The translations under genes were made by a program, and so were the position numbers. The notes under the pieces are model-generated. The model was not told where the DNA came from. It saw only the letters and a program-made list of their open reading frames with translations, and ran no database searches. From IMG/VR virus record IMGVR_UViG_3300021440_000001: a stretch of 64,000 bases of DNA; one strand, written 5' to 3'. Positions 11,290 through 46,745 of this stretch are shown here, in pieces (within the stretch, counting starts at the first letter, position 1; each line of letters starts with the position of its first letter). Source of the stretch: a virus. Taxonomy: Duplodnaviria; Heunggongvirae; Uroviricota; Caudoviricetes.

Positions 11290-11330
11290 TATATATATAT
11301 TATATATTATATATATTATATATCTTGCCT
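11281..11330. repeat. (TA)n / TATATAT low-complexity tract (about 50 bp)
   Basis: direct inspection. Confidence 0.9.
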
Positions 11331-22400: not shown

Positions 22401-24004
22401 ATGAGAGGCGTATTTGACATCGAAGCCAACGCACTTCTTGACCACACTACAATCGACTACTTGGCTAGCCCATTCAAGCTCAAGCCTACGTTCATGGTTT
22501 GGTGCTTGGTTGTTCAAGACATCGACACTGGAGCTGTGTACAGGTTTGTAGGTGACGAGGTTCGGACTGAATTTCCCCGCCTGCTGGCAAAGATGACGAC
22601 CATCATCGGCCACAACATCATAGACTATGACTTGCTGGTGCTAAAGCTCTGGCTCGGAATAGACTATGAAATCGGCGAGCAGTGCTACATCGACGGCAGA
22701 CCTGTTGAAATTATCGACACACTGGTTTTGTCCAAAGTGTTGAACCCAGACCGATACGGCGGACACTCTCTTGACGAGTGGGGTAAGCGCCTAGGACTCG
22801 ACAAGATCGACTGGCGTGCAAAAGCAATTGAGCTTGGGCTTATCCAGTACAACTCGCCAAAGGGTGCAGAGTTTGCCCAGTATCACCCAGAAATGCTTGT
22901 GTACAACGAGCGTGACGTTGCAGTTAACGCTAAACTCTATTTCAACCTTGTGGATGAAATGGGCAGTTGGAACTGGCAAGGCCCGTTTGTGCTTGAGCAG
23001 ATGACACGGGACATTATCACCCGACAGTCGCACAGAGGGTTCTGGTTCAACGCTGAACTCGCAGAGGCAAATGTCCGAGAACTTGACGCCAAGATGGAAG
23101 AGATTAGGCTGTTGGTCGAGCCGCTACTGCCGCCGAAGCCGATGGGGTTGACGAAGCTGAAAGGGTACATTCCTCCGAAGATTCAGTTCAAGAAGAATGG
23201 CGAGCCTTCTGCCGTTGTTTTGAAGTGGGTGGAGCGCCACGGGGGCTCGATTTGGGAGGAATCAGGGCACTGGTGGTACAAGGTCTACGACAAGCAGGGT
23301 AAGATGCCAATGCCAGCCGACGAGGCTGTTGTGACGCACGAGCCAGCAACTGTCAAGGACACTACCCACATCAAGGGGTGGCTTGTTGAACTCGGGTGGC
23401 GTCCTACGCAATACAAGGAGCGTGATATAACCTGTGACAGCAAGAAGAAAAAGCTCACACCAGATAAGTTTGCCGACACTGTTGAACGCTACGTAGAGCA
23501 AACGCTGTCTAGTCCATTCAAGCGTGACCGTTGCAACGAACTTGACGTGTCTGCTTCGAGACTCAGAGACAAGTTGCTTAAGCACGACCTGAAGAGGCCG
23601 CTGAAGGTCTACACCAATCCCACCATTACCGTGGGTATGGAAAAAGAAATCGACCCTGCGCTTCTTGAGCTTGCAGACCAGTTCCCGCATGCGAAGCTTG
23701 TGTCAGAGTACCTGACGTATGCTCACAGGCGTAACAGCATCCTGGGCGGAGGGTTTGATCCTGACGACCTAGACGATGATGACGAGTTCGCTGGTAAGGG
23801 TTTTATGGCCGCTGGGCGCATTGCGGAAGACGGCCGTATCCAGACCCCTGCGGACTCCTGCGGAGCTGGCACAAGCCGTTTTAAGCACCGTCTCGTGGCT
23901 AATGTTCCGCGTGTGACCAGTTTGTATGGCAGGAACATGCGGGCTCTCTTTGGAGTTGACAAGGATGACGGATTTCTGCAACTGGGTTACGACTTTGATT
24001 CGTT
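22401..24004 (+). CDS. DNA polymerase I family (T7 gp5-like), exon 1: 3'-5' exonuclease plus N-terminal polymerase region ending in motif A
   Basis: Exo I VFDIEANAL, YNERDV; ends ...LQLGYDFDSL (motif A DxSxxE.R interrupted); AAGGAGAAGG RBS. Confidence 0.8.
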
Positions 24005-24814
24005 AATGACTGGCGAATGTAAAACCTGTTGAATTGCTGGGACACCCTAACGTACAATGGCGAGGGCAATCAGCAGCGAAGACGTGAGCTACCTCTTATT
24101 TGAAAGGAGGTAGGTATGGAAAGAAAGACTGTGCGTTGGTCGCCGTCTTATGATGTTTACGAGGATGGCAGGGTTTGGAGCAGGCACACAGGGAGGTTAT
24201 TGAAGCCCTTCTTGTCCACACAATCTGACGAGTACTTGTCAGTGAAGCTGTGCGAAGACTGCGAAGAACGGACAATCAGTGTGCATAGGCTTGTAGCCGA
24301 GCACTTTGTCCCTAATCCTGACAACCTAGGAACTGTCAATCATAAAGACGGCAACAAACAGAACAACCATCGTAGTAACCTAGAGTGGATGACTCAAGGC
24401 GATAACAAGCGGCATGCGTTCCAAACCGGAGTGTCTGTTGCTTGGTGGCAAGGAGATACACACTCTAGAAGCACTTTCACCAACGAAGAAGTGCATGAGA
24501 TTTGCAGCCTGTTCCAAAGCGGTGTGAAGCCGCTGGACTTGGCGAAGTCCACGACGCTCTTGTACCAGAAGCTGTTTAGAATCTGGAACAGAGATAACTG
24601 GAAGTCGATTTCTAAAGACTATAGTTGGTAGCTCACGTAACGTTCAACGACTATCGAAACCACGCAGCAATGCGGAAGGGAGTAGAGTAGGAAGCAAGCC
24701 TATGGCTTCCGAAGTGGCAGGGGACGAAAGTCCATGATATAGTCTGAACACGCAGGAGACTGCGTGCGGAGGTTAAATCCTCGGGTGGTTGTTGCGAAGC
24801 CACTGAACAAATTG
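24005..24814 (+). other. group I intron in the DNA polymerase gene (carries an HNH ORF)
   Basis: exon ends in U, with P1 pairing ATTCGU/GCGAAU; intron ends in G; conserved core GACTATCGAAA...GAGTAGAGTAGGA...GATGATATAGTCYGA shared with the nrdA introns; spliced product gives DFDSL|EAKIEAH matching T7 DASGLELRCLAH. Confidence 0.7.
24116..24631 (+). CDS. intron-encoded HNH homing endonuclease (NUMOD-like N-terminus + HNH_3)
   Basis: VNHKDGNKQNNHRSNLEW; GAAAGGAGGTAGGT RBS inside the intron; paralog at 37487. Confidence 0.75.
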   Translation: MERKTVRWSPSYDVYEDGRVWSRHTGRLLKPFLSTQSDEYLSVKLCEDCEERTISVHRLVAEHFVPNPDNLGTVNHKDGNKQNNHRSNLEWMTQGDNKRHAFQTGVSVAWWQGDTHSRSTFTNEEVHEICSLFQSGVKPLDLAKSTTLLYQKLFRIWNRDNWKSISKDYSW

Positions 24815-25614
24815 TGGAAGCGAAGATCGAAGCCCACTACGTCTACCGCTATGCGGGAGGTCCGGAGTATGGGGTGAGTCTGACGGCTGAAAAACCGAAT
24901 GACTGCCATAGCGTTCTTGCGCGTAAGATCACGGGAATACTCGGACGTGAGTTTCCTCGGTCAACTGCGAAGAACGTCAAGTATGGGTGCAGCTACAATG
25001 CTCAACCAACGCGTGTGGCTAAGACGGTGGGCTGCGATCTGGATACAGGTCAGATCATCTTCGATGCGTTCTGGGAGCAGGCTAGCCCGCTGAAAGAACT
25101 CAAGGAAAAGATGCAGAAATACTGGGAAGGTCCGGGCCAGAAGAAGTTCCTCATGGGCATCGACAACCGAAAGTTGCCGATCCGCGCAAAAGGGAACGTC
25201 ATCAACACGGCATTCCAGTCTGCTGGCGTCATCTGTGCTAAGCGGGCGATGGTTATCCACGAAAAAATGTTGAAAGACGAGGGTTTGTGGGTTGACTTTT
25301 TCCGCGATGACTGGAAGAATAAGGACTTCTGCCAACAACTGATCGCCTACCATGATGAGGCGCAACTAGAGGTTCGCCGTAGCATGGTGACGTGGAAGAA
25401 GTTCAGTAGCGAAGCTGAGTGCAAGGCGTTCAAGAGCGACGACGGAAAGGTGTGGAGCGACCCTGTTCACAATGACAAGGGCTGGTTCCGTGGCTACTGT
25501 CGTGCTGGCGAGCTTGCAACAATCGCTGTAAGAGAGGCTGGACAACACTACAAACTTAACGTAGAATTGTCGGCTGGATACATGCTAGGCACCGACTGGG
25601 CTAGCTGCCACTAA
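24815..25614 (+). CDS. DNA polymerase exon 2 (motifs B and C, C-terminus)
   Basis: R..AKNVKYGCSYN (motif B), LIAYHDEAQLE (motif C HDE), C-terminal ...GTDWASCH matches T7 ...GPNWAICH. Confidence 0.8.
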
Positions 25615-25620
25615 AACTGC

Positions 25621-25700
25621 GCGTCTGTAGTTCAATGGATAGAGCAAGAGTGTTCTAGGCTCCGGGCTCCGGGTTGTGGGTTCGAGTCCTACCAGACGCG
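25621..25700 (+). tRNA. tRNA-like gene, anticodon UCU (Arg), with a 7-bp tandem duplication GCTCCGG that creates a long extra arm
   Basis: acceptor GCGTCTG/CAGACGC, D-arm GTTC-AATGGATA-GAGC, anticodon loop GTTCTAG, T-arm GTGGG-TTCGAGT-CCTAC; 80 nt instead of 73. Confidence 0.65.
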
Positions 25701-25729
25701 CAAATCTCAATGACGAGAAAGGAGAAAGA

Positions 25730-26020
25730 GTGAATACAGTTCATACCGAACTAACTGCCCGTTTTGAAGCCTTTGATGCTGAAAATCCGCAAGTCTACGA
25801 CCTGTTCAAGCAGTTCAGCTTCGAGCTGATTGCAACTGGCAAGAAGAAGAGCAGCGCATGGCTTGTTGCGAACCGGCTTCGCTGGGAGACTGCAATCAAG
25901 ACGACTGGCGGAGACTTCAAGATCAGCAACGACTTCATCGCGCTGTATGCCCGCAAGTTCATGCGAAACTACCCGATCTATCATGGCTTCTTTGTGACGA
26001 AGCCGATGAAGCGGGCTTGA
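25730..26020 (+). CDS. hypothetical protein (GTG start after AAGGAGAAAGA)
   Basis: ORF 25676..26020 begins inside the tRNA; the GTG with RBS is the plausible start. Confidence 0.45.
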   Translation: MNTVHTELTARFEAFDAENPQVYDLFKQFSFELIATGKKKSSAWLVANRLRWETAIKTTGGDFKISNDFIALYARKFMRNYPIYHGFFVTKPMKRA

Positions 26021-26677: not shown

Positions 26678-27469
26678 ATGCTAAAAGCTACGAGTATGGC
26701 GGGATGGGACATCCCTCTGAAGGTGTGGAAGTTCCCGTGTGGCGAAGTCGGCGTAAAGATTGAAAGCGGGTTCGCTAATGGTGAAGTGGAAGTGGCAGTG
26801 ACGCTGATGTGGGAGGGCAATGACGACCTGATTGCGCTTGGGCAGTTAGTCGATGCGCTGCGGCACGCGGGTGTTGAACGTATCTCACTGAACATTCCAT
26901 ACTTCCCCTATTCACGCCAAGACCGCCGCTGCAATTCCGGAGAGGGTCACGCCCTTAAAATGGTTGCCGCCTACATCAACAGTCTGAATTTCTCCACCGT
27001 CTACACAATGGACGCTCACAGCTATGTGCTTGAAGCTGTCGTCAACAACCTGCGGGTGACTGAACAAGAAGATTGTGCATTTATGCTGCCGAGCTTTGAT
27101 GTCTTTGTGGCCCCTGACGCAGGCGCCAGCAAGAAGATTTTCAAGCTGACTTCCACCTTTGAGGGTGCGGAAGTTCTTGTTGCTGACAAGAAGCGTGACG
27201 CTATTGGAAGGATAATTGAAACCCGCGTCAGCGGTGGAGAGTCCATTACCGGCAAGTCAGTGTGTGTTGTTGATGACTTATGCGACGGCGGCGCAACATT
27301 CGTTGAGCTTGGCAAGGTGCTTAAAAAGTACGAACCGGCCTCTCTCAACTTGTACGTGACACATGGGTTTTTCACGAAGGGTGTTGAAATTCTGACACCG
27401 TTCTACGAGACAATCTACGTCTCAAACTTGATGAACAACGCGGCAAAGCCGCATGTAAAGGAGATTTGA
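26678..27469 (+). CDS. ribose-phosphate pyrophosphokinase-like protein (Prs / candidate ADPR-PP synthetase Adps)
   Basis: PRPP-binding loop VVDDLCDGGATF, ...YSRQDRR...; 263 aa, shorter than cellular Prs. Confidence 0.7.
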   Translation: MLKATSMAGWDIPLKVWKFPCGEVGVKIESGFANGEVEVAVTLMWEGNDDLIALGQLVDALRHAGVERISLNIPYFPYSRQDRRCNSGEGHALKMVAAYINSLNFSTVYTMDAHSYVLEAVVNNLRVTEQEDCAFMLPSFDVFVAPDAGASKKIFKLTSTFEGAEVLVADKKRDAIGRIIETRVSGGESITGKSVCVVDDLCDGGATFVELGKVLKKYEPASLNLYVTHGFFTKGVEILTPFYETIYVSNLMNNAAKPHVKEI

Positions 27470-27470
27470 T

Positions 27471-29066
27471 TTGAAGAGCTTTCCACTGACCCAAGCCGAC
27501 TTCTACAAGCTGTCGCACAAAAAGTTCATGGTTGATGGCGTGACCAAGATTTACGCCAACTTCACGGCGCGTTCTGGCAAGTATGCAAAGTGGGCAGATG
27601 ACAGAAAGCGAGTAGTGTTTGCTGGCCTTCAGCACTTCATCAAAGACTTCTTGATTGAAGAGTGGAATAGGGAGTTCTTCAAGAAGCCAAAAGCGCAGGT
27701 GATTGCCAAATTCAAGCGACGCGTTGAAACGTCTCTTGGCGTTGGCTCAGTGAGCATGGCCCACTTTGAAGCTCTGCATGACCTTGGCTACCTGCCACTG
27801 AAGATCAAGGCTCTGCCTGAAGGCTCGAAGGTTCCTTTCAAGGTTCCTCTACTGACCGTTGTCAACACTGACGACGATTTTGCATGGCTTGTCACGTACA
27901 TCGAAACTGCCCTTTCGACGGAGCTGTGGGCTACTACCACTGCTGCGACCACTGCGTACCAGTTTCTGACTCTGTGCAACAGTTTTGCAGACCAAACAGT
28001 AGGCAACCGCAATCATGTCATGTTCCAGTGTCATGACTTCTCTGCGCGTGGTGTCATCGGTCGCAATGGTGGGGCTCTAACGGGTCTTGGACATTTGATG
28101 TCGTTCAATGGCACAGATACTATCGCGGCAATCGACCTTGTTGAAGACTATTACAACGTGGATGCCAGCAAGTATTTCATTGCTGCATCGGTTCCTGCCA
28201 GTGAGCACAGCGTAACGTCGCTCGGAAGCAGCGTTCTCGGAGAGTTCGGTACTATCAAGAGCTGGATAACCGAGGCCTACCCGACAGGTATTGTATCAGT
28301 TGTGTCGGATACCTACGATTATTGGCGTGTTCTCACCAAGTACCTACCACTGATGAAGGACGATATCAAGGCACGTAAGCCGAACGAGCTTGGACTTGCA
28401 AAGGTTGTTGTGCGCCCTGACAGCGGCGAGCCTGCACGAGTCATTGCTGGATATCGACCCGACGAGTTTTACTCTGAAGTGAAAAACATTCAGCGAGACG
28501 GCTGGACTGAGTGTGTAAGCGTGTTCACTTGCAAGAGCACTGGAAAGCAGTTGACTGAAGATGAAATCAAGGGTAGTATTGAGATTCTGTGGGAGACATT
28601 TGGTGGCACGACTAACAAGTTTGGCTACCGTGAACTCGACCCGTGCATCGGTTTGATCTACGGCGACAGCATCACGCTGGAGCGGGCTGACGATATATTC
28701 CGCCGATTGCAGCAGCGAGGGTTTGCAAGTAGCAACGTCGTGTTTGGCGTAGGCTCTTACACATACCAGATGGTCAGCCGCGACACGCTTGGCATGGCAG
28801 TTAAAGCCACTGCTGCTGTTGTTGACGGCGAGCTGAAGGCACTATTCAAAAACCCGGCGACTGACGACGGGACGAAGAAGTCTGCACGCGGCCTCATGCG
28901 CGTCGAGCTGATCGACGGTGAGTACGTGATGTTTGACCGCCAAACCGAGGCTCAGGAGGCTTCTGGTGAGCTTCGAACTGTGTTTGAAGACGGCGTGCTG
29001 TTGATTGACGAAACATTTGAGGTCATCCGGGCACGGGTCCAAGACATCGTGCTTGAAAAGGCGTAA
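27471..29066 (+). CDS. nicotinamide phosphoribosyltransferase-like protein (NAMPT/NadV family; candidate Namat)
   Basis: 531 aa; type II PRTase-like with GTDT..., ...YGDSIT... regions; TTG start overlapping the upstream stop. Confidence 0.7.
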   Translation: MKSFPLTQADFYKLSHKKFMVDGVTKIYANFTARSGKYAKWADDRKRVVFAGLQHFIKDFLIEEWNREFFKKPKAQVIAKFKRRVETSLGVGSVSMAHFEALHDLGYLPLKIKALPEGSKVPFKVPLLTVVNTDDDFAWLVTYIETALSTELWATTTAATTAYQFLTLCNSFADQTVGNRNHVMFQCHDFSARGVIGRNGGALTGLGHLMSFNGTDTIAAIDLVEDYYNVDASKYFIAASVPASEHSVTSLGSSVLGEFGTIKSWITEAYPTGIVSVVSDTYDYWRVLTKYLPLMKDDIKARKPNELGLAKVVVRPDSGEPARVIAGYRPDEFYSEVKNIQRDGWTECVSVFTCKSTGKQLTEDEIKGSIEILWETFGGTTNKFGYRELDPCIGLIYGDSITLERADDIFRRLQQRGFASSNVVFGVGSYTYQMVSRDTLGMAVKATAAVVDGELKALFKNPATDDGTKKSARGLMRVELIDGEYVMFDRQTEAQEASGELRTVFEDGVLLIDETFEVIRARVQDIVLEKA

Positions 29067-37362: not shown

Positions 37363-38181
37363 AAATATTTGCCCCTGTAAGCCGGAAGGTTTACAGAAAA
37401 CCTATTGAATTGCTGGAAGGCTAAGGCGCAAGCTATGCTAATCAGCAGGGAAGGCTTCAAGTACGACCTTTACGAAAGGAGGTTGTATGCGAAAATACTG
37501 GACGACAGAAGAGATAGAGCTACTGACAGAGTTTGCCTCGTGTGGCAGGTCATTTATTGAACTTGCTACAATGCTTGGGAGAACACTGCAAAGCGTGCAG
37601 CATAAAGCTAGCAAGCTGTCAATTACGTTTGTACGAAAACCTGCCAAAACACTGTACGGTGAAGTGTGGGCGAAGTCTTACGTAGATGATGTTCTAGTCT
37701 CAAATCATGGAAGATTCAAGCGGGCCAGCACCAACTCTCTCCTAAGCGGAACTGTTCTTCAAGACGGCTACGTTCAAGTAGAGGTTTCCAGAAGTGGAGG
37801 CGCGGTCAAATGCTATGCACACCGGCTTGTTGCAGAGGCGTTCGTGGAGAACCCAGACAACAAGCCAGAGGTCAACCATAAGAATAGGAACAAAGCTGAC
37901 AACTCGGCAGAAAACCTAGAATGGGTGACAAGAAGTGAGAACATGATTCACGCCCATGCTACGGGATTTATCCGTAGGTAGGCTATTGTCGTACTTGAAG
38001 CAACCTTCAGAGACTATCGAAAGCACGCGAAAGCGGAAGCGAGTAGAGTAGGAGAGCGAAGCCGATGCGCCTCCGAAGTGGTAGGCACCTGTTTACAGGT
38101 GATGATATAGTCCGATCCTACGCGAAAGCGTATGGCAGCACGTTATGGTGCGGGGCACACTTGCAAAGTGTCCGAACTTTG
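37363..38181 (+). other. group I intron 1 of nrdA with HNH ORF (boundaries approximate to within 10 nt)
   Basis: 5' region AAAACCTATTGAATTGCTGG and 3' core GACTATCGAAAGCACGCGAAAGCGGAAGCGAGTAGAGTAGGA...GATGATATAGTCCGA nearly identical to the pol intron. Confidence 0.65.
37487..37981 (+). CDS. intron-encoded HNH homing endonuclease (paralog of 24116..24631)
   Basis: VNHKNRNKADNSAENLEW; GAAAGGAGGTTGT RBS. Confidence 0.75.
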   Translation: MRKYWTTEEIELLTEFASCGRSFIELATMLGRTLQSVQHKASKLSITFVRKPAKTLYGEVWAKSYVDDVLVSNHGRFKRASTNSLLSGTVLQDGYVQVEVSRSGGAVKCYAHRLVAEAFVENPDNKPEVNHKNRNKADNSAENLEWVTRSENMIHAHATGFIRR

Positions 38182-38658
38182 AAACTTCCATACTACAAGG
38201 TCCAGCAAGCGGCTGTATCGGCCAATTTGCAGGCTTCCCGTGGTGGTGCTAACACGATGCACTTCAACGTCATGGACCCGGAGATTTTCGACCTGCTGAA
38301 GTTGAAGAACGTCCAGACCATTGCCGACAAGCGTATCAAGGACATTGACTACTCTGTAGGGTACAATGACGAGTTCGCCCGACGTGTAGCTGCGAACGAG
38401 TCTTGGATGCTGGTCAGTTACGGTGACGCCCCAGAGTTGTACGAGGCCATGTATGACGGTGACTCGAAGAAGTTTGTCAAGCTCTACTCTGAGGTAGAGG
38501 TAGACGAGAGCATTCAGAAGCAGTTCGTGAGCGCAAGAAAAATTGCCATCACGTTCTTGACTGAAGCTGTTGAAACTGGCAGACTATACGAGCACAACAC
38601 AAGCGAGCTGAATCGTCACACGCCTTTCAAGGACACTATCTACTCTAGCAATTTGTGT
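38182..38658 (+). CDS. nrdA: nrdA exon 2
   Basis: KLPYYKVQQAAVSANLQASRGGANTMHF aligns with E. coli CIPFYKHFQTAVKSCSQGGVRGGAATLFY; ends ...YSSNLC. Confidence 0.7.
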
Positions 38659-38905
38659 TAAATCTAGCACCCTTGCACGGTGACGTGCATTGAACAACCC
38701 ATTGAACTCAGGGGAAACGTAGGAAACGTAATCCTGATCGAAGCCTATTTATAGGAACGAGCAACGACTATCCCGAAAGGGAGTACACCCAAGCGGGTGG
38801 AAGCGGTGGGCATCTCTAAAGGAGATGATGATATAGTCTGGTCTGCATAGGGATATGCAGCAGCCGAAAGGCGGGAAGTGATTAGCGACCACTTCTGAAC
38901 TTACG
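38659..38905 (+). other. ORF-less group I intron 2 of nrdA (247 nt)
   Basis: exon ends in U, intron ends in G; contains GACTATCCCGAAAGGGAGTA...GGAGATGATGATATAGTCTGG core; splicing yields NLC|QEIGLPT, colinear with E. coli NLCLEIALPT. Confidence 0.7.
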
Positions 38906-39898
38906 CAAGAAATCGGCCTTCCGACTCTGGGCTACAACTCAGTGTATGACTTGTACCGGCCTGTGCCGGCTGCGTTCCAAGTTATCGAAGACATGGGCGA
39001 AATTGGCCTGTGCTCTCTTGCAGCTATTGCCGCAGGGCTAGTCAGTGACGAAGAGTATGAAGAGGTTGCCTATTATGCTTCGTTGATGATTGATAACGTC
39101 ATCGACATCATGGAATACCCGTTCCCGCAGTTGAAAGTCACAGCTCAGGCTCGCCGCAGCATTGGAGTAGGCATCACAAACCTCGCCTTTGCGATGGCCA
39201 AGGAAGGGCTGAAGTACAGTACGCTGGAAGGTAAGCAGTACATTTTCAGGCTTGCAGAGCGCCACAGCTATTACCTGCACAAGGCCTCGCTGCGGCTTGC
39301 CAAAGAGCGCGGCATCTGCGAATGGGCTGACCGAACGAAGTATTCTGAAGGCTGGCTTCCCATTGACACGGCGAACAAGGAAATCCAGCGTCTGATTGGA
39401 CAACCTCTGCTGTGTGACTGGGAAGCACTCCGCTCTGAAATGAAGGCTATTGGCGGACTCCGCTTCTCGGTACACGAAGCGCATATGCCATGCGAGTCCA
39501 GCAGCGTTGCTGGTGGGCACACGAACGGCCTGTACCCGATCCGTGCATACAAGGTTGTCAAGACATCTGGAACAAACAAAAACTTGTTCATTGCTCCAGA
39601 ACTTGATACACTTGCATCGAGCTATGAGCTTGCGTGGGAGATTCCTACGAACGACATGATCGACGTGTATGCTATTGTCCAGTGCTTCACTGGTCAGGCT
39701 ATCTCTGCCGACCTGTACATCAAGTACGACAAGGAAGGCAAACGAGAGCTGTCGGCGAAGACGCTGTTGCAAGAGTGGCTGCGACGTGTTAAACTTGGCA
39801 TGAAGACGAAATACTACACTAATTCTTCCACAGGTGTAGAGTTGGACGCTTCTCCGAAAGAAGAAGAAGCCCCGGTGTGTGACAGTTGCTCGCTTTGA
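38906..39898 (+). CDS. nrdA: nrdA exon 3 (C-terminal CxxC tail ...EEAPVCDSCSL)
   Basis: EIGLCSL..., PIDT..., HEAHMPCESSSVAGGHTNGLYP (essential Tyr-Tyr region), C-terminal redox-shuttle Cys pair. Confidence 0.8.
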   Translation, partial: QEIGLPTLGYNSVYDLYRPVPAAFQVIEDMGEIGLCSLAAIAAGLVSDEEYEEVAYYASLMIDNVIDIMEYPFPQLKVTAQARRSIGVGITNLAFAMAKEGLKYSTLEGKQYIFRLAERHSYYLHKASLRLAKERGICEWADRTKYSEGWLPIDTANKEIQRLIGQPLLCDWEALRSEMKAIGGLRFSVHEAHMPCESSSVAGGHTNGLYPIRAYKVVKTSGTNKNLFIAPELDTLASSYELAWEIPTNDMIDVYAIVQCFTGQAISADLYIKYDKEGKRELSAKTLLQEWLRRVKLGMKTKYYTNSSTGVELDASPKEEEAPVCDSCSL

Positions 39899-45845: not shown

Positions 45846-46745
45846 TTAGACCATGTAACTGCCGTTGATAAGGAGATCGCCAGACGTGGCCACTGGCAAT
45901 GCCGTTAGTGTTGGAGCAGCGGACGACTGCTGTGCCAGCGTTACAACGCCAGCACCGGAGCTGATGTATGCAACGAGTGTCCCTGTGTACGTGACATTGA
46001 TACCGATCACGCTGAGGGGTGATGTCGGAGCTGCCCCGCTCAGCGTAAATGGCAGTCCAGCGATAGTAAGGCTACCCGTGCCTGTGTGAGCCGTCCACAG
46101 CACCCGCAGGGAGAATTCAACACGATTACCAATGCGGGTGTATGTACCTGTCTGAAGCGTGTATGTTCCTGCCCCAGCCGTTGTCAGTCCAACCACTGTC
46201 GGTACGAACGTACCCTCTTGGTAGTAGTCAAGTGTGTTGACATCCGCTGACAGCGTTGTGCCGATCTTGTAGCCCGATGCACTCGTAGGTGCAGCGTTAA
46301 ACGTGATTACGTTCGTCCCACCGCCTGACGTGCCGATGTTGATATTCGTTGTTGAACCAGCAACACCACCTGTACCGATGTTGACTGTCTTTGTCGTGGC
46401 TGTTACTGTAGCGCCCGTGCCGATGTTTATCGCTGTGGTTGCCGTAGAGTTGCCTAACGTCAGCGAAGTCCCGGTGACAGTGAACGTAGCATTAGAGTAC
46501 GTCGTAGGCCCAATGAATGTTTGTGTCAGGTTGCCCAGCGTTGCTAGCTGCCCTGTAATGGCAGGCAGCGCGAACGTGTAAGTCGTAGCAGTTGGAAAGC
46601 CAGATACAGCGAACTTCGCTAGCTTTGTTGCGTCTGTAGCGTCTGCGATGCCGAACGTATTCGAGTTTGCAGTGCCGCCAGAAGACGCAGCCAGTATATT
46701 AAGTTGTTCGATGTAGTCCGTCTGCCCTATGTAGAATGTTGGCAT
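45846..46745 (-). CDS. tail fiber protein (G/T/A-rich, beta-rich repeats)
   Basis: composition TGTxTVT repeats; tail-module position. Confidence 0.55.
   Translation of the reverse strand: MPTFYIGQTDYIEQLNILAASSGGTANSNTFGIADATDATKLAKFAVSGFPTATTYTFALPAITGQLATLGNLTQTFIGPTTYSNATFTVTGTSLTLGNSTATTAINIGTGATVTATTKTVNIGTGGVAGSTTNINIGTSGGGTNVITFNAAPTSASGYKIGTTLSADVNTLDYYQEGTFVPTVVGLTTAGAGTYTLQTGTYTRIGNRVEFSLRVLWTAHTGTGSLTIAGLPFTLSGAAPTSPLSVIGINVTYTGTLVAYISSGAGVVTLAQQSSAAPTLTALPVATSGDLLINGSYMV

Follow-up and report, generated by a model that had tools for sequence, protein, structure and literature searches.

The window, that is the whole stretch of 64,000 nucleotides analysed here, carries just behind a DNA polymerase gene what we consider to be a genuine phage tRNA-Arg(UCU) gene enlarged by a 7-nt tandem duplication. 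Our main reading, to which the sequence comparisons lead us to give a probability of about 0.55, is that this accessory phage tRNA has undergone a slippage micro-duplication, is weakened and evolves under relaxed selection. The broader proposition that it is a derived slippage allele of a tRNA-Arg of unchanged identity appears very probable; this being granted, an impaired or decaying gene is only slightly favoured over a fully functional one. The finding is of small weight, being a mutated allele of a common type of phage accessory gene. Its value lies in the clean natural before/after pair formed by the 73-nt gene of locus L039 and the 80-nt gene of the window. This pair offers a convenient test of whether a class I variable-loop expansion is tolerated by the tRNA, the arginyl-tRNA synthetase (ArgRS) and the ribosome, and also of whether tandem duplication could plausibly open the way from class I to class II architecture. 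The features concerned are the following:

24814..25614, + strand: C-terminal exon or fragment of a family A DNA polymerase (PF00476), ending 6 nt 5' of the tRNA gene
25539..25567, + strand: promoter-like site TGGACA-17-TAGAAT within the polymerase 3' end, some 53 nt before the start of the tRNA gene (consensus match only, 10/12)
25621..25700, + strand: tRNA-Arg(UCU) gene, 80 nt up to the discriminator G (ARAGORN, Rfam RF00005, base pairs checked)
25654..25656, + strand: anticodon TCT inside the 7-nt loop GTTCTAG, 25652-25658 (sequence, ARAGORN)
25659..25665, + strand: repeat copy 1, GCTCCGG; in the favoured register, its first five bases supply the 3' side of the anticodon stem
25664..25675, + strand: 12-nt variable region GGGCTCCGGGTT, for which the un-duplicated alleles have 5 nt, GGGTT (sequence)
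25666..25672, + strand: repeat copy 2, GCTCCGG, that is the 7 extra bases missing in L039, L001, L002, L037 and L038 (alignments)
25701..25703, + strand: 3' trailer CAA, with CCA at the same place in all single-copy alleles
25730..26020, + strand: 96-aa gene p96, function unassigned, with a GTG start behind a GGAG ribosome-binding site

ARAGORN calls a tRNA-Arg(tct) at 25621-25701, the sole tRNA called in the 64 kb, and Rfam RF00005 matches 25621-25700 with 43.8 bits (gathering score 29; E 5e-6). From 25621 to 25700 the gene reads GCGTCTG-TA-GTTC-AATGGATA-GAGC-A-AGAGT-GTTCTAG-GCTCC-GGGCTCCGGGTT-GTGGG-TTCGAGT-CCTAC-CAGACGC-G. Each stem pair was checked. The acceptor stem has 7 bp, all paired (GCGTCTG/CAGACGC); the D stem has 4 bp, all paired, one of them G.U; the T stem, within the T arm GTGGG-TTCGAGT-CCTAC, has 5 bp, also with one G.U. 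The anticodon stem consists of four pairs (G28-C42, A29-U41, G30-C40 and U31.G39) next to an A27xC43 mismatch, and there are two possible 3' strands for it. In the energetically favoured register, the anticodon UCU lies in a 7-nt loop, GUUCUAG, that includes U33. The discriminator is G25700, and the conserved core nucleotides U8, A14, G18, G19, U54, U55, C56, A58 and G53-C61 are all intact. These results bear out an earlier note on this DNA, which had described a canonical tRNA fold with a UCU anticodon right behind the DNA polymerase stop codon and had suggested the tRNA-finder run: the polymerase stop, TAA, is at 25612-25614 and the tRNA gene begins 6 nt downstream.

The direct duplication of GCTCCGG at the boundary of the anticodon stem and the variable region, described in the same note, is likewise present. 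The exact tandem spans 25659-25672, within a period-7 tract, GGCTCCGGGCTCCGGG, that covers 25658-25673. Only three unit-7 tandem tracts of such quality occur in the window, the tRNA tract included; the other two are located at 11294 and 39930 (14 and 9 matching positions). The resulting variable region, GGGCUCCGGGUU, has 12 nt against the 4-5 nt of class I tRNAs and the 5 nt of the single-copy alleles. Deleting one copy does leave a 73-nt tRNA, but not the "perfect" one that had been claimed, as it retains the A27xC43 mismatch, the U31.G39 wobble and a G at both 32 and 38. Two other candidates were discarded. A bacterial tRNA intron was rejected because an insert of 7 nt is much too small for one and exactly repeats the adjoining sequence. 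A second GCGTCTGTAG at 46630, considered as a tRNA fragment or att-like repeat, is a chance 10-mer.

Three alleles of the gene are found at one position, 6 nt past the polymerase stop:

Allele W (window, L022, L025): T11, T16, C42; GCTCCGG twice; trailer CAA; 80 nt
Allele I (L039, ENA ERZ4198739): C11, T16, C42; GCTCCGG once; trailer CCA; 73 nt
Allele L (L001 and L002 from IMG/VR; L037 and L038 from Logan SRR11723145 and SRR11727740): C11, A16, A42, giving a G28xA42 mismatch; GCTCCGG once; trailer CCA; 73 nt

Within the tRNA body, the 73-nt gene of L039 and the 80-nt gene of the window differ only by C11/U11 and the 7-nt insert. The pre-duplication form predicted by the earlier note therefore exists, and from the alignment we identify L039 as carrying the exact single-copy precursor sequence of the duplicated allele. 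The adjoining polymerase DNA diverges by 2.6% between W and I and by 10% between W and L. Taking allele L as outgroup places three events on the W branch: C11->T, the duplication and CCA->CAA. Moreover, in the comparison with related phages that had been called for, all gene-bearing relatives outside the W lineage have the 73-nt single-copy form, and the duplication is not conserved. These alignments identify the duplication as a derived, lineage-specific allele of one young lineage.

More distant loci are informative about the gene's distribution. A polymerase-based synteny search of IMG/VR and metagenomes gave 24 loci (L003-L015 and L026-L036), none of which has a tRNA beside the polymerase. 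Their polymerase C-terminal identity is 51-89%, and their only tRNA is a tRNA-Met located about 3 kb downstream in L008. Since they are without a tRNA next to the polymerase, these loci cannot be used as outgroups. Furthermore, p96 heads a p96-DUF7448-Prs-NAMPT module that co-occurs with the tRNA and that was not found by tblastn in IMG/VR loci L003-L008 and L011-L015. Since the distant relatives have no tRNA beside the polymerase and the checked loci do not have this module, we assign the tRNA to an accessory module of one sub-clade. Pattern scans for the tRNA, with anticodon and variable region left free, gave no match in JGI metagenome contigs or GTDB genomes, and matched only L001 and L002 in IMG/VR. 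Megablast/blastn of GenBank phages returned no close relative, only distant polymerase matches. The closest cultured phages by polymerase are the Aeromonas phages phiA047 and vB_AceP_PAc and Pseudaeromonas phage KLEP7 (56-57% amino-acid identity; genomes of about 117-124 kb). Since these nearest cultured phages are phages of Aeromonas and Pseudaeromonas, the host of the uncultured phage is probably a gammaproteobacterium.

The surrounding genes carry several other elements. Positions 26678-29066 (+ strand) of the window encode a ribose-phosphate pyrophosphokinase-like gene (PF13793/PF00156) and a NAMPT/NAPRTase-family gene (PF04095), which together look like a phage NAD+ salvage pair. Only in this sub-clade does the pair accompany the tRNA, and relatives with at most 89% identity lack it after the polymerase. 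The family A DNA polymerase is split in a conserved motif, between …GYDFDSL and MEAKIEAHY…, by an insertion of about 814 nt (24003-24816) encoding an HNH_3 endonuclease (ORF 24116-24631) that is rich in AGA/AGG. A match to a group I intron, full-length but below threshold, extends over 23979-24766 (21.9 bits, E 0.004), and the insertion probably represents a mobile group I intron that encodes a homing endonuclease. The polymerase is uninterrupted in L001, L002 and L037; L014 and L015 have other insertions elsewhere in the polymerase, and in the annotation of Pseudaeromonas phage KLEP7 an HNH gene splits the polymerase. In addition, a group I catalytic intron (Rfam RF00028, 81.8 bits) at 38649-38860 (+ strand) interrupts the gene of the ribonucleotide reductase large subunit; the ORFs around it, 38065-38661 and 38942-39898, match PF02867 profile positions 57-212 and 223-523.

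The alleles suggest different regimes before and after the duplication. Between W and L, 3 of the 73 tRNA positions differ (4%); the polymerase 3' end and p96 each differ by 10%, and the 1.5 kb that follow by 22%. Because of this difference between the tRNA and its flanks, we regard the gene as conserved over the deeper history of the clade. G32, G38, U31.G39 and A27xC43 (window 25647-25663) are common to W, I and L and set the clade apart from the canonical genes of L016-L019, whose D and T arms are the same as its own. The retention of this atypical anticodon arm across 10-22% flank divergence suggests that it is tolerated or useful. On the W branch, three events fall in 76 nt against about 1% expected, the adjoining polymerase having the W-I divergence given above. 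These are the change of C11-G24 to a U11.G24 wobble, the enlargement of the variable loop and the loss of the encoded CCA, each of which weakens a canonical feature. This triple change is suggestive of relaxed constraint and, with a Poisson probability of roughly 0.1, is not statistically decisive. Since the duplication carriers differ mutually by only about 0.1%, no later selection can be read from them.

The 80-nt RNA can be drawn as a cloverleaf in two registers. In register A, copy 1 is the 3' strand of the anticodon stem, which leaves the 7-nt loop GUUCUAG and a 12-nt variable region. In register B, copy 2 is this strand, the loop has 14 nt and the variable region its normal 5 nt. The structures evaluated have the following energies:

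Register A, unpaired variable region: -22.7 kcal/mol
Register A with a 2-bp variable hairpin: -23.0 kcal/mol
Register A with a 3-bp hairpin using the unpaired C43: -25.4 kcal/mol
3-bp anticodon stem with a 4-bp CCGG/CCGG hairpin (C42 taken from the anticodon stem): -25.5 kcal/mol
Register B: -21.8 kcal/mol

ARAGORN picks register A and the optimal Infernal alignment puts the extra bases (9 nt) in the anticodon loop, a further sign of register ambiguity. The CCGG/CCGG stem proposed in the earlier note can form, but only with C42 and C43 removed from the anticodon stem, and, taken by itself, the anticodon-stem/variable segment shows no folding advantage over shuffled sequences (z = +1.0). The unconstrained minimum free energy (MFE) fold of the whole RNA is not a cloverleaf, either for the window (-30.7) or for the L allele (-27.6 vs -22.3 for its cloverleaf); in both folds (window and L001 allele), the 3' strand of the D arm pairs with the anticodon loop. 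Since the L allele behaves alike, little weight was put on the non-cloverleaf fold of the window, a usual limit of thermodynamic folding for tRNAs, and the named structures were evaluated instead. Furthermore, the L001-type allele persists despite its stem-breaking G28xA42 and an equally large non-cloverleaf MFE gap; therefore, an "imperfect" tRNA need not be a "dead" one.

The most likely origin of the allele is a 7-nt tandem duplication by replication slippage between the GG(G) runs around CTCC, where the anticodon stem meets the variable loop. The 80-nt RNA would still fold as a cloverleaf in which copy 1 closes the 7-nt anticodon loop and seven extra bases are looped out of the variable region. 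The original GGGUU beside the T stem would then be unchanged and free for core tertiary contacts, with G44, G45, G46 and U48 still available. In the standard tRNA tertiary map, these are the usual partners of 26, 10-25, 13-22 and 15. As to identity, the bacterial ArgRS determinants are A20, C35, U/G36 and A/G73 (PMC9976931). All are present in the window tRNA, the D loop AAUGGAUA supplying A20, the UCU anticodon C35 and U36, and the discriminator G73. According to the class rule of Ruff et al. 1991, class I synthetases such as ArgRS are said to approach the tRNA from the minor-groove side, with the variable loop facing solvent. Since ArgRS would leave this loop solvent-facing, its enlargement should not block arginylation, and since A20, C35, U36 and G73 are also intact, the 80-nt tRNA, if it is charged at all, most likely carries arginine.

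The U11.G24 wobble, the loss of CCA, the competing hairpin and the competing register with its 14-nt loop together suggest a weakened tRNA and possibly a future pseudogene. Where there is a CCA-adding enzyme, as for T4 tRNAs, a tRNA is not disabled by the lack of an encoded CCA. Like the degenerate or pseudo-tRNA genes of phages and slippage micro-duplications in general, the window gene has a short tandem duplication between short direct repeats (GG...GG), is lineage-specific and has further weakening substitutions alongside. Unlike phage pseudo-tRNAs, however, it passes both detectors comfortably and keeps all its identity and core nucleotides, so that the label of pseudogene goes beyond what the letters allow.

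A serious, though tentative, alternative is that the gene is a fully functional tRNA-Arg(UCU) in which the seven bases are a harmless, solvent-exposed enlargement of the loop, a neutral polymorphism, and which still serves AGA/AGG decoding or counter-defence. The intact arginine determinants and core nucleotides are consistent with function, as is the fact that, of the two cloverleaf registers, the one with the 7-nt anticodon loop is the more favourable. The loss in Rfam score is small: the window gene is just 2.3 bits below the un-duplicated L001 allele (46.1), the canonical phage tRNA-Arg(UCU) genes of L016-L019 reaching 61.6. Moreover, ribosomes and EF-Tu routinely handle class II tRNAs, and the duplication is carried by at least two genotypes in several samples. 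The promoter-like site and the leader are also conserved, both hexamers, TGGACA and TAGAAT (consensus match only), being kept in all three alleles. Window positions 25565-25630 run from ~50 nt before the end of the polymerase gene across the 6-nt spacer to nucleotide 10 of the tRNA; these alleles show 100% identity there, against a polymerase 3'-end divergence of up to 10%, and this identity could reflect a constraint on the promoter or leader processing, or a recent recombination.

Full function fits less well with the two further derived weakening changes on the same short branch (C11-G24 to U.G and CCA to CAA) and with a new CCGG/CCGG hairpin that competes with an anticodon stem already of only 4 bp. 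The selective need for the tRNA would also be small, given the few AGA/AGG codons of genuine phage genes. Counted gene by gene in the recognisable genes only, as a crude overall count takes in some spurious antisense ORFs, these codons make up 1/14 of the Arg codons in the polymerase C-terminal fragment, 2/27 in the NAMPT gene, and 10/41 and 10/66 in the two largest ORFs, against 8/12 in the HNH homing-endonuclease ORF located in the polymerase gene. Since the recognisable phage genes use AGA/AGG sparingly, the demand appears modest, which fits a drift-prone accessory gene. The window tRNA shares its anticodon with canonical phage tRNA-Arg(UCU) genes (T4 tRNA-Arg type; L016-L019), and its D arm, GTAGTTCAATGGATAGAGC, and T arm, GTTGTGGGTTCGAGTCCTACC, recur unchanged in tRNA-Arg(UCU) genes of other viral contigs of ~100 kb. 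Like phage accessory tRNA-Arg(UCU) genes generally, it occurs as a single accessory gene within a large phage genome of lytic type. It differs from the canonical genes by its variable region (12 vs 5 nt), the absence of an encoded CCA and its atypical anticodon arm (G32, G38, U.G and AxC).

It seems improbable that the duplication is adaptive, that is, that it changes the way in which a host tRNA-targeting nuclease, modification enzyme or processing enzyme views the anticodon arm or the core. In this case, it would extend the unusual anticodon loop (G32, G38, G39) already common to all alleles. Colicin D cuts between positions 38 and 39. Anticodon-loop changes in phage tRNAs have been proposed to allow escape from host tRNases, including colicin D, which targets tRNA-Arg (PMC10264068), and tRNA-cleaving defences can be countered by phage tRNAs (PMC11555353). 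The three alleles keep the atypical arm (GUUCUAG, U31.G39 and A27xC43) across the flank divergence mentioned above, and this arm may be related to anticodon-nuclease evasion. However, the duplication itself lies outside the loop, whose sequence is unchanged, it is carried by one very young lineage only, and the data do not separate an adaptive change from a neutral one. In addition, we know of no nuclease that reads the variable region of tRNA-Arg.

An identity switch, in which a class-II-type arm would lead to charging by the seryl-tRNA synthetase (SerRS) and AGA/AGG would be partly read as serine, is highly improbable. The earlier note had left the choice between a disrupted tRNA and such a serylated AGA/AGG decoder. 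The first half stands in the sense that the tRNA is derived from a 73-nt single-copy form, as in its relatives (a result that the note itself had counted against the exotic reading), and possibly disrupted; the second half finds no support, given a short and weak arm, an unfavourable acceptor pair and the retention of the ArgRS determinants. With 12 nt, the variable region does exceed the formal limit of >10 nt for class II (PMC7609411), and a hairpin of 3-4 bp can be drawn. Moreover, the discriminator is G73 as in tRNA-Ser, although ArgRS also accepts this base, and SerRS ignores the anticodon (PMC9976931). However, the variable region by itself forms only G44-C50 and G45-C49, with about -0.3 kcal/mol, and a hairpin of 3-4 bp must borrow C43 and C42 from the anticodon stem. 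The class II tRNAs of phage loci used for comparison, namely a tRNA-Ser(tga), a tRNA-Ser(gct) and two tRNA-Leu(taa), have 84-88 nt and self-folding 5-bp variable stems that are visible in their unconstrained MFE folds, and the phage tRNA-Ser (L017) start with G1-G2-A3. Most bacterial tRNA-Ser have conserved G1-C72 and G2-C71 pairs, and for E. coli SerRS the pair C2-G71 acts as an antideterminant (PMC9976931); the acceptor stem of the window tRNA has G1-C72, C2-G71 and G3-C70. With A20, C35 and U36 kept, ArgRS would compete for the tRNA. Furthermore, no orthologue conserves the arm, which is missing in L039, L001, L002, L037 and L038.

Known class II tRNAs with a wrong anticodon come from class II ancestors (PMC7609411, PMC3333845). 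These are the bacterial allo-tRNAs (Mukai et al. 2017, reviewed in PMC7609411), some of which have Arg anticodons (PMC7609411), and the nematode nev-tRNAs (PMC3333845), whose anticodon is mismatched to the amino acid of the extra arm, as it would be here. Their ancestry is tRNA-Sec/Ser-like or tRNA-Leu, and they combine long stable arms with the acceptor and discriminator elements of the matching identity; different taxa conserve them, and their charging has been shown experimentally (PMC7609411, PMC3333845). In contrast, the window tRNA has a 7-nt duplication, an arm of 2-4 bp and a SerRS antideterminant, and is limited to a single young lineage. It is just as improbable that the duplication is a one-step proto-variable arm on a class I tRNA-Arg(UCU) that would be accepted by some host SerRS or another factor binding class II tRNAs. 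If it were so, the phage would insert serine at some AGA/AGG codons, and this would be the first identity switch through the gain of an arm rather than through an anticodon change in an existing class II tRNA. Serylation of the 80-nt form would be a new route to natural codon ambiguity; the evidence is against it.

The preferred reading of a derived slippage allele supposes that the duplication is present in the phage DNA itself. Exact-protein look-ups find the polymerase C-terminal fragment on 9 contigs and the 96-aa protein p96 on 8; three of these contigs, from three sample accessions, were examined, and two of them span the tRNA gene. The spanning contigs, ENA ERZ27251985 k141_574348, assembled with MEGAHIT (L022/L024), and Logan SRR7107448_208122 (L025), have an identical 80-nt gene with two repeat copies and the CAA trailer. 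They have four to five SNPs in common vs the window over 3.7-6.8 kb; therefore, the duplication occurs in at least two genotypes. An assembly or sequencing artefact is the least probable explanation of all, since a short tandem repeat in one contig could in principle be mistaken, but here different assemblers recovered the same 80 nt from a genotype other than that of the window, and a 14-nt repeat is shorter than their k-mers and must exist in the reads. We thus consider the artefact excluded, and with it the assembly error by which the earlier note might have been refuted, and the duplication as real and inherited. The third contig examined, L023 (ENA ERZ27251998 k141_364623; 954 nt), is identical to the window and stops 6 nt into the tRNA gene (window 25626), before the repeat; this stop could reflect a branch in the assembly graph due to co-existing tRNA alleles in that sample.
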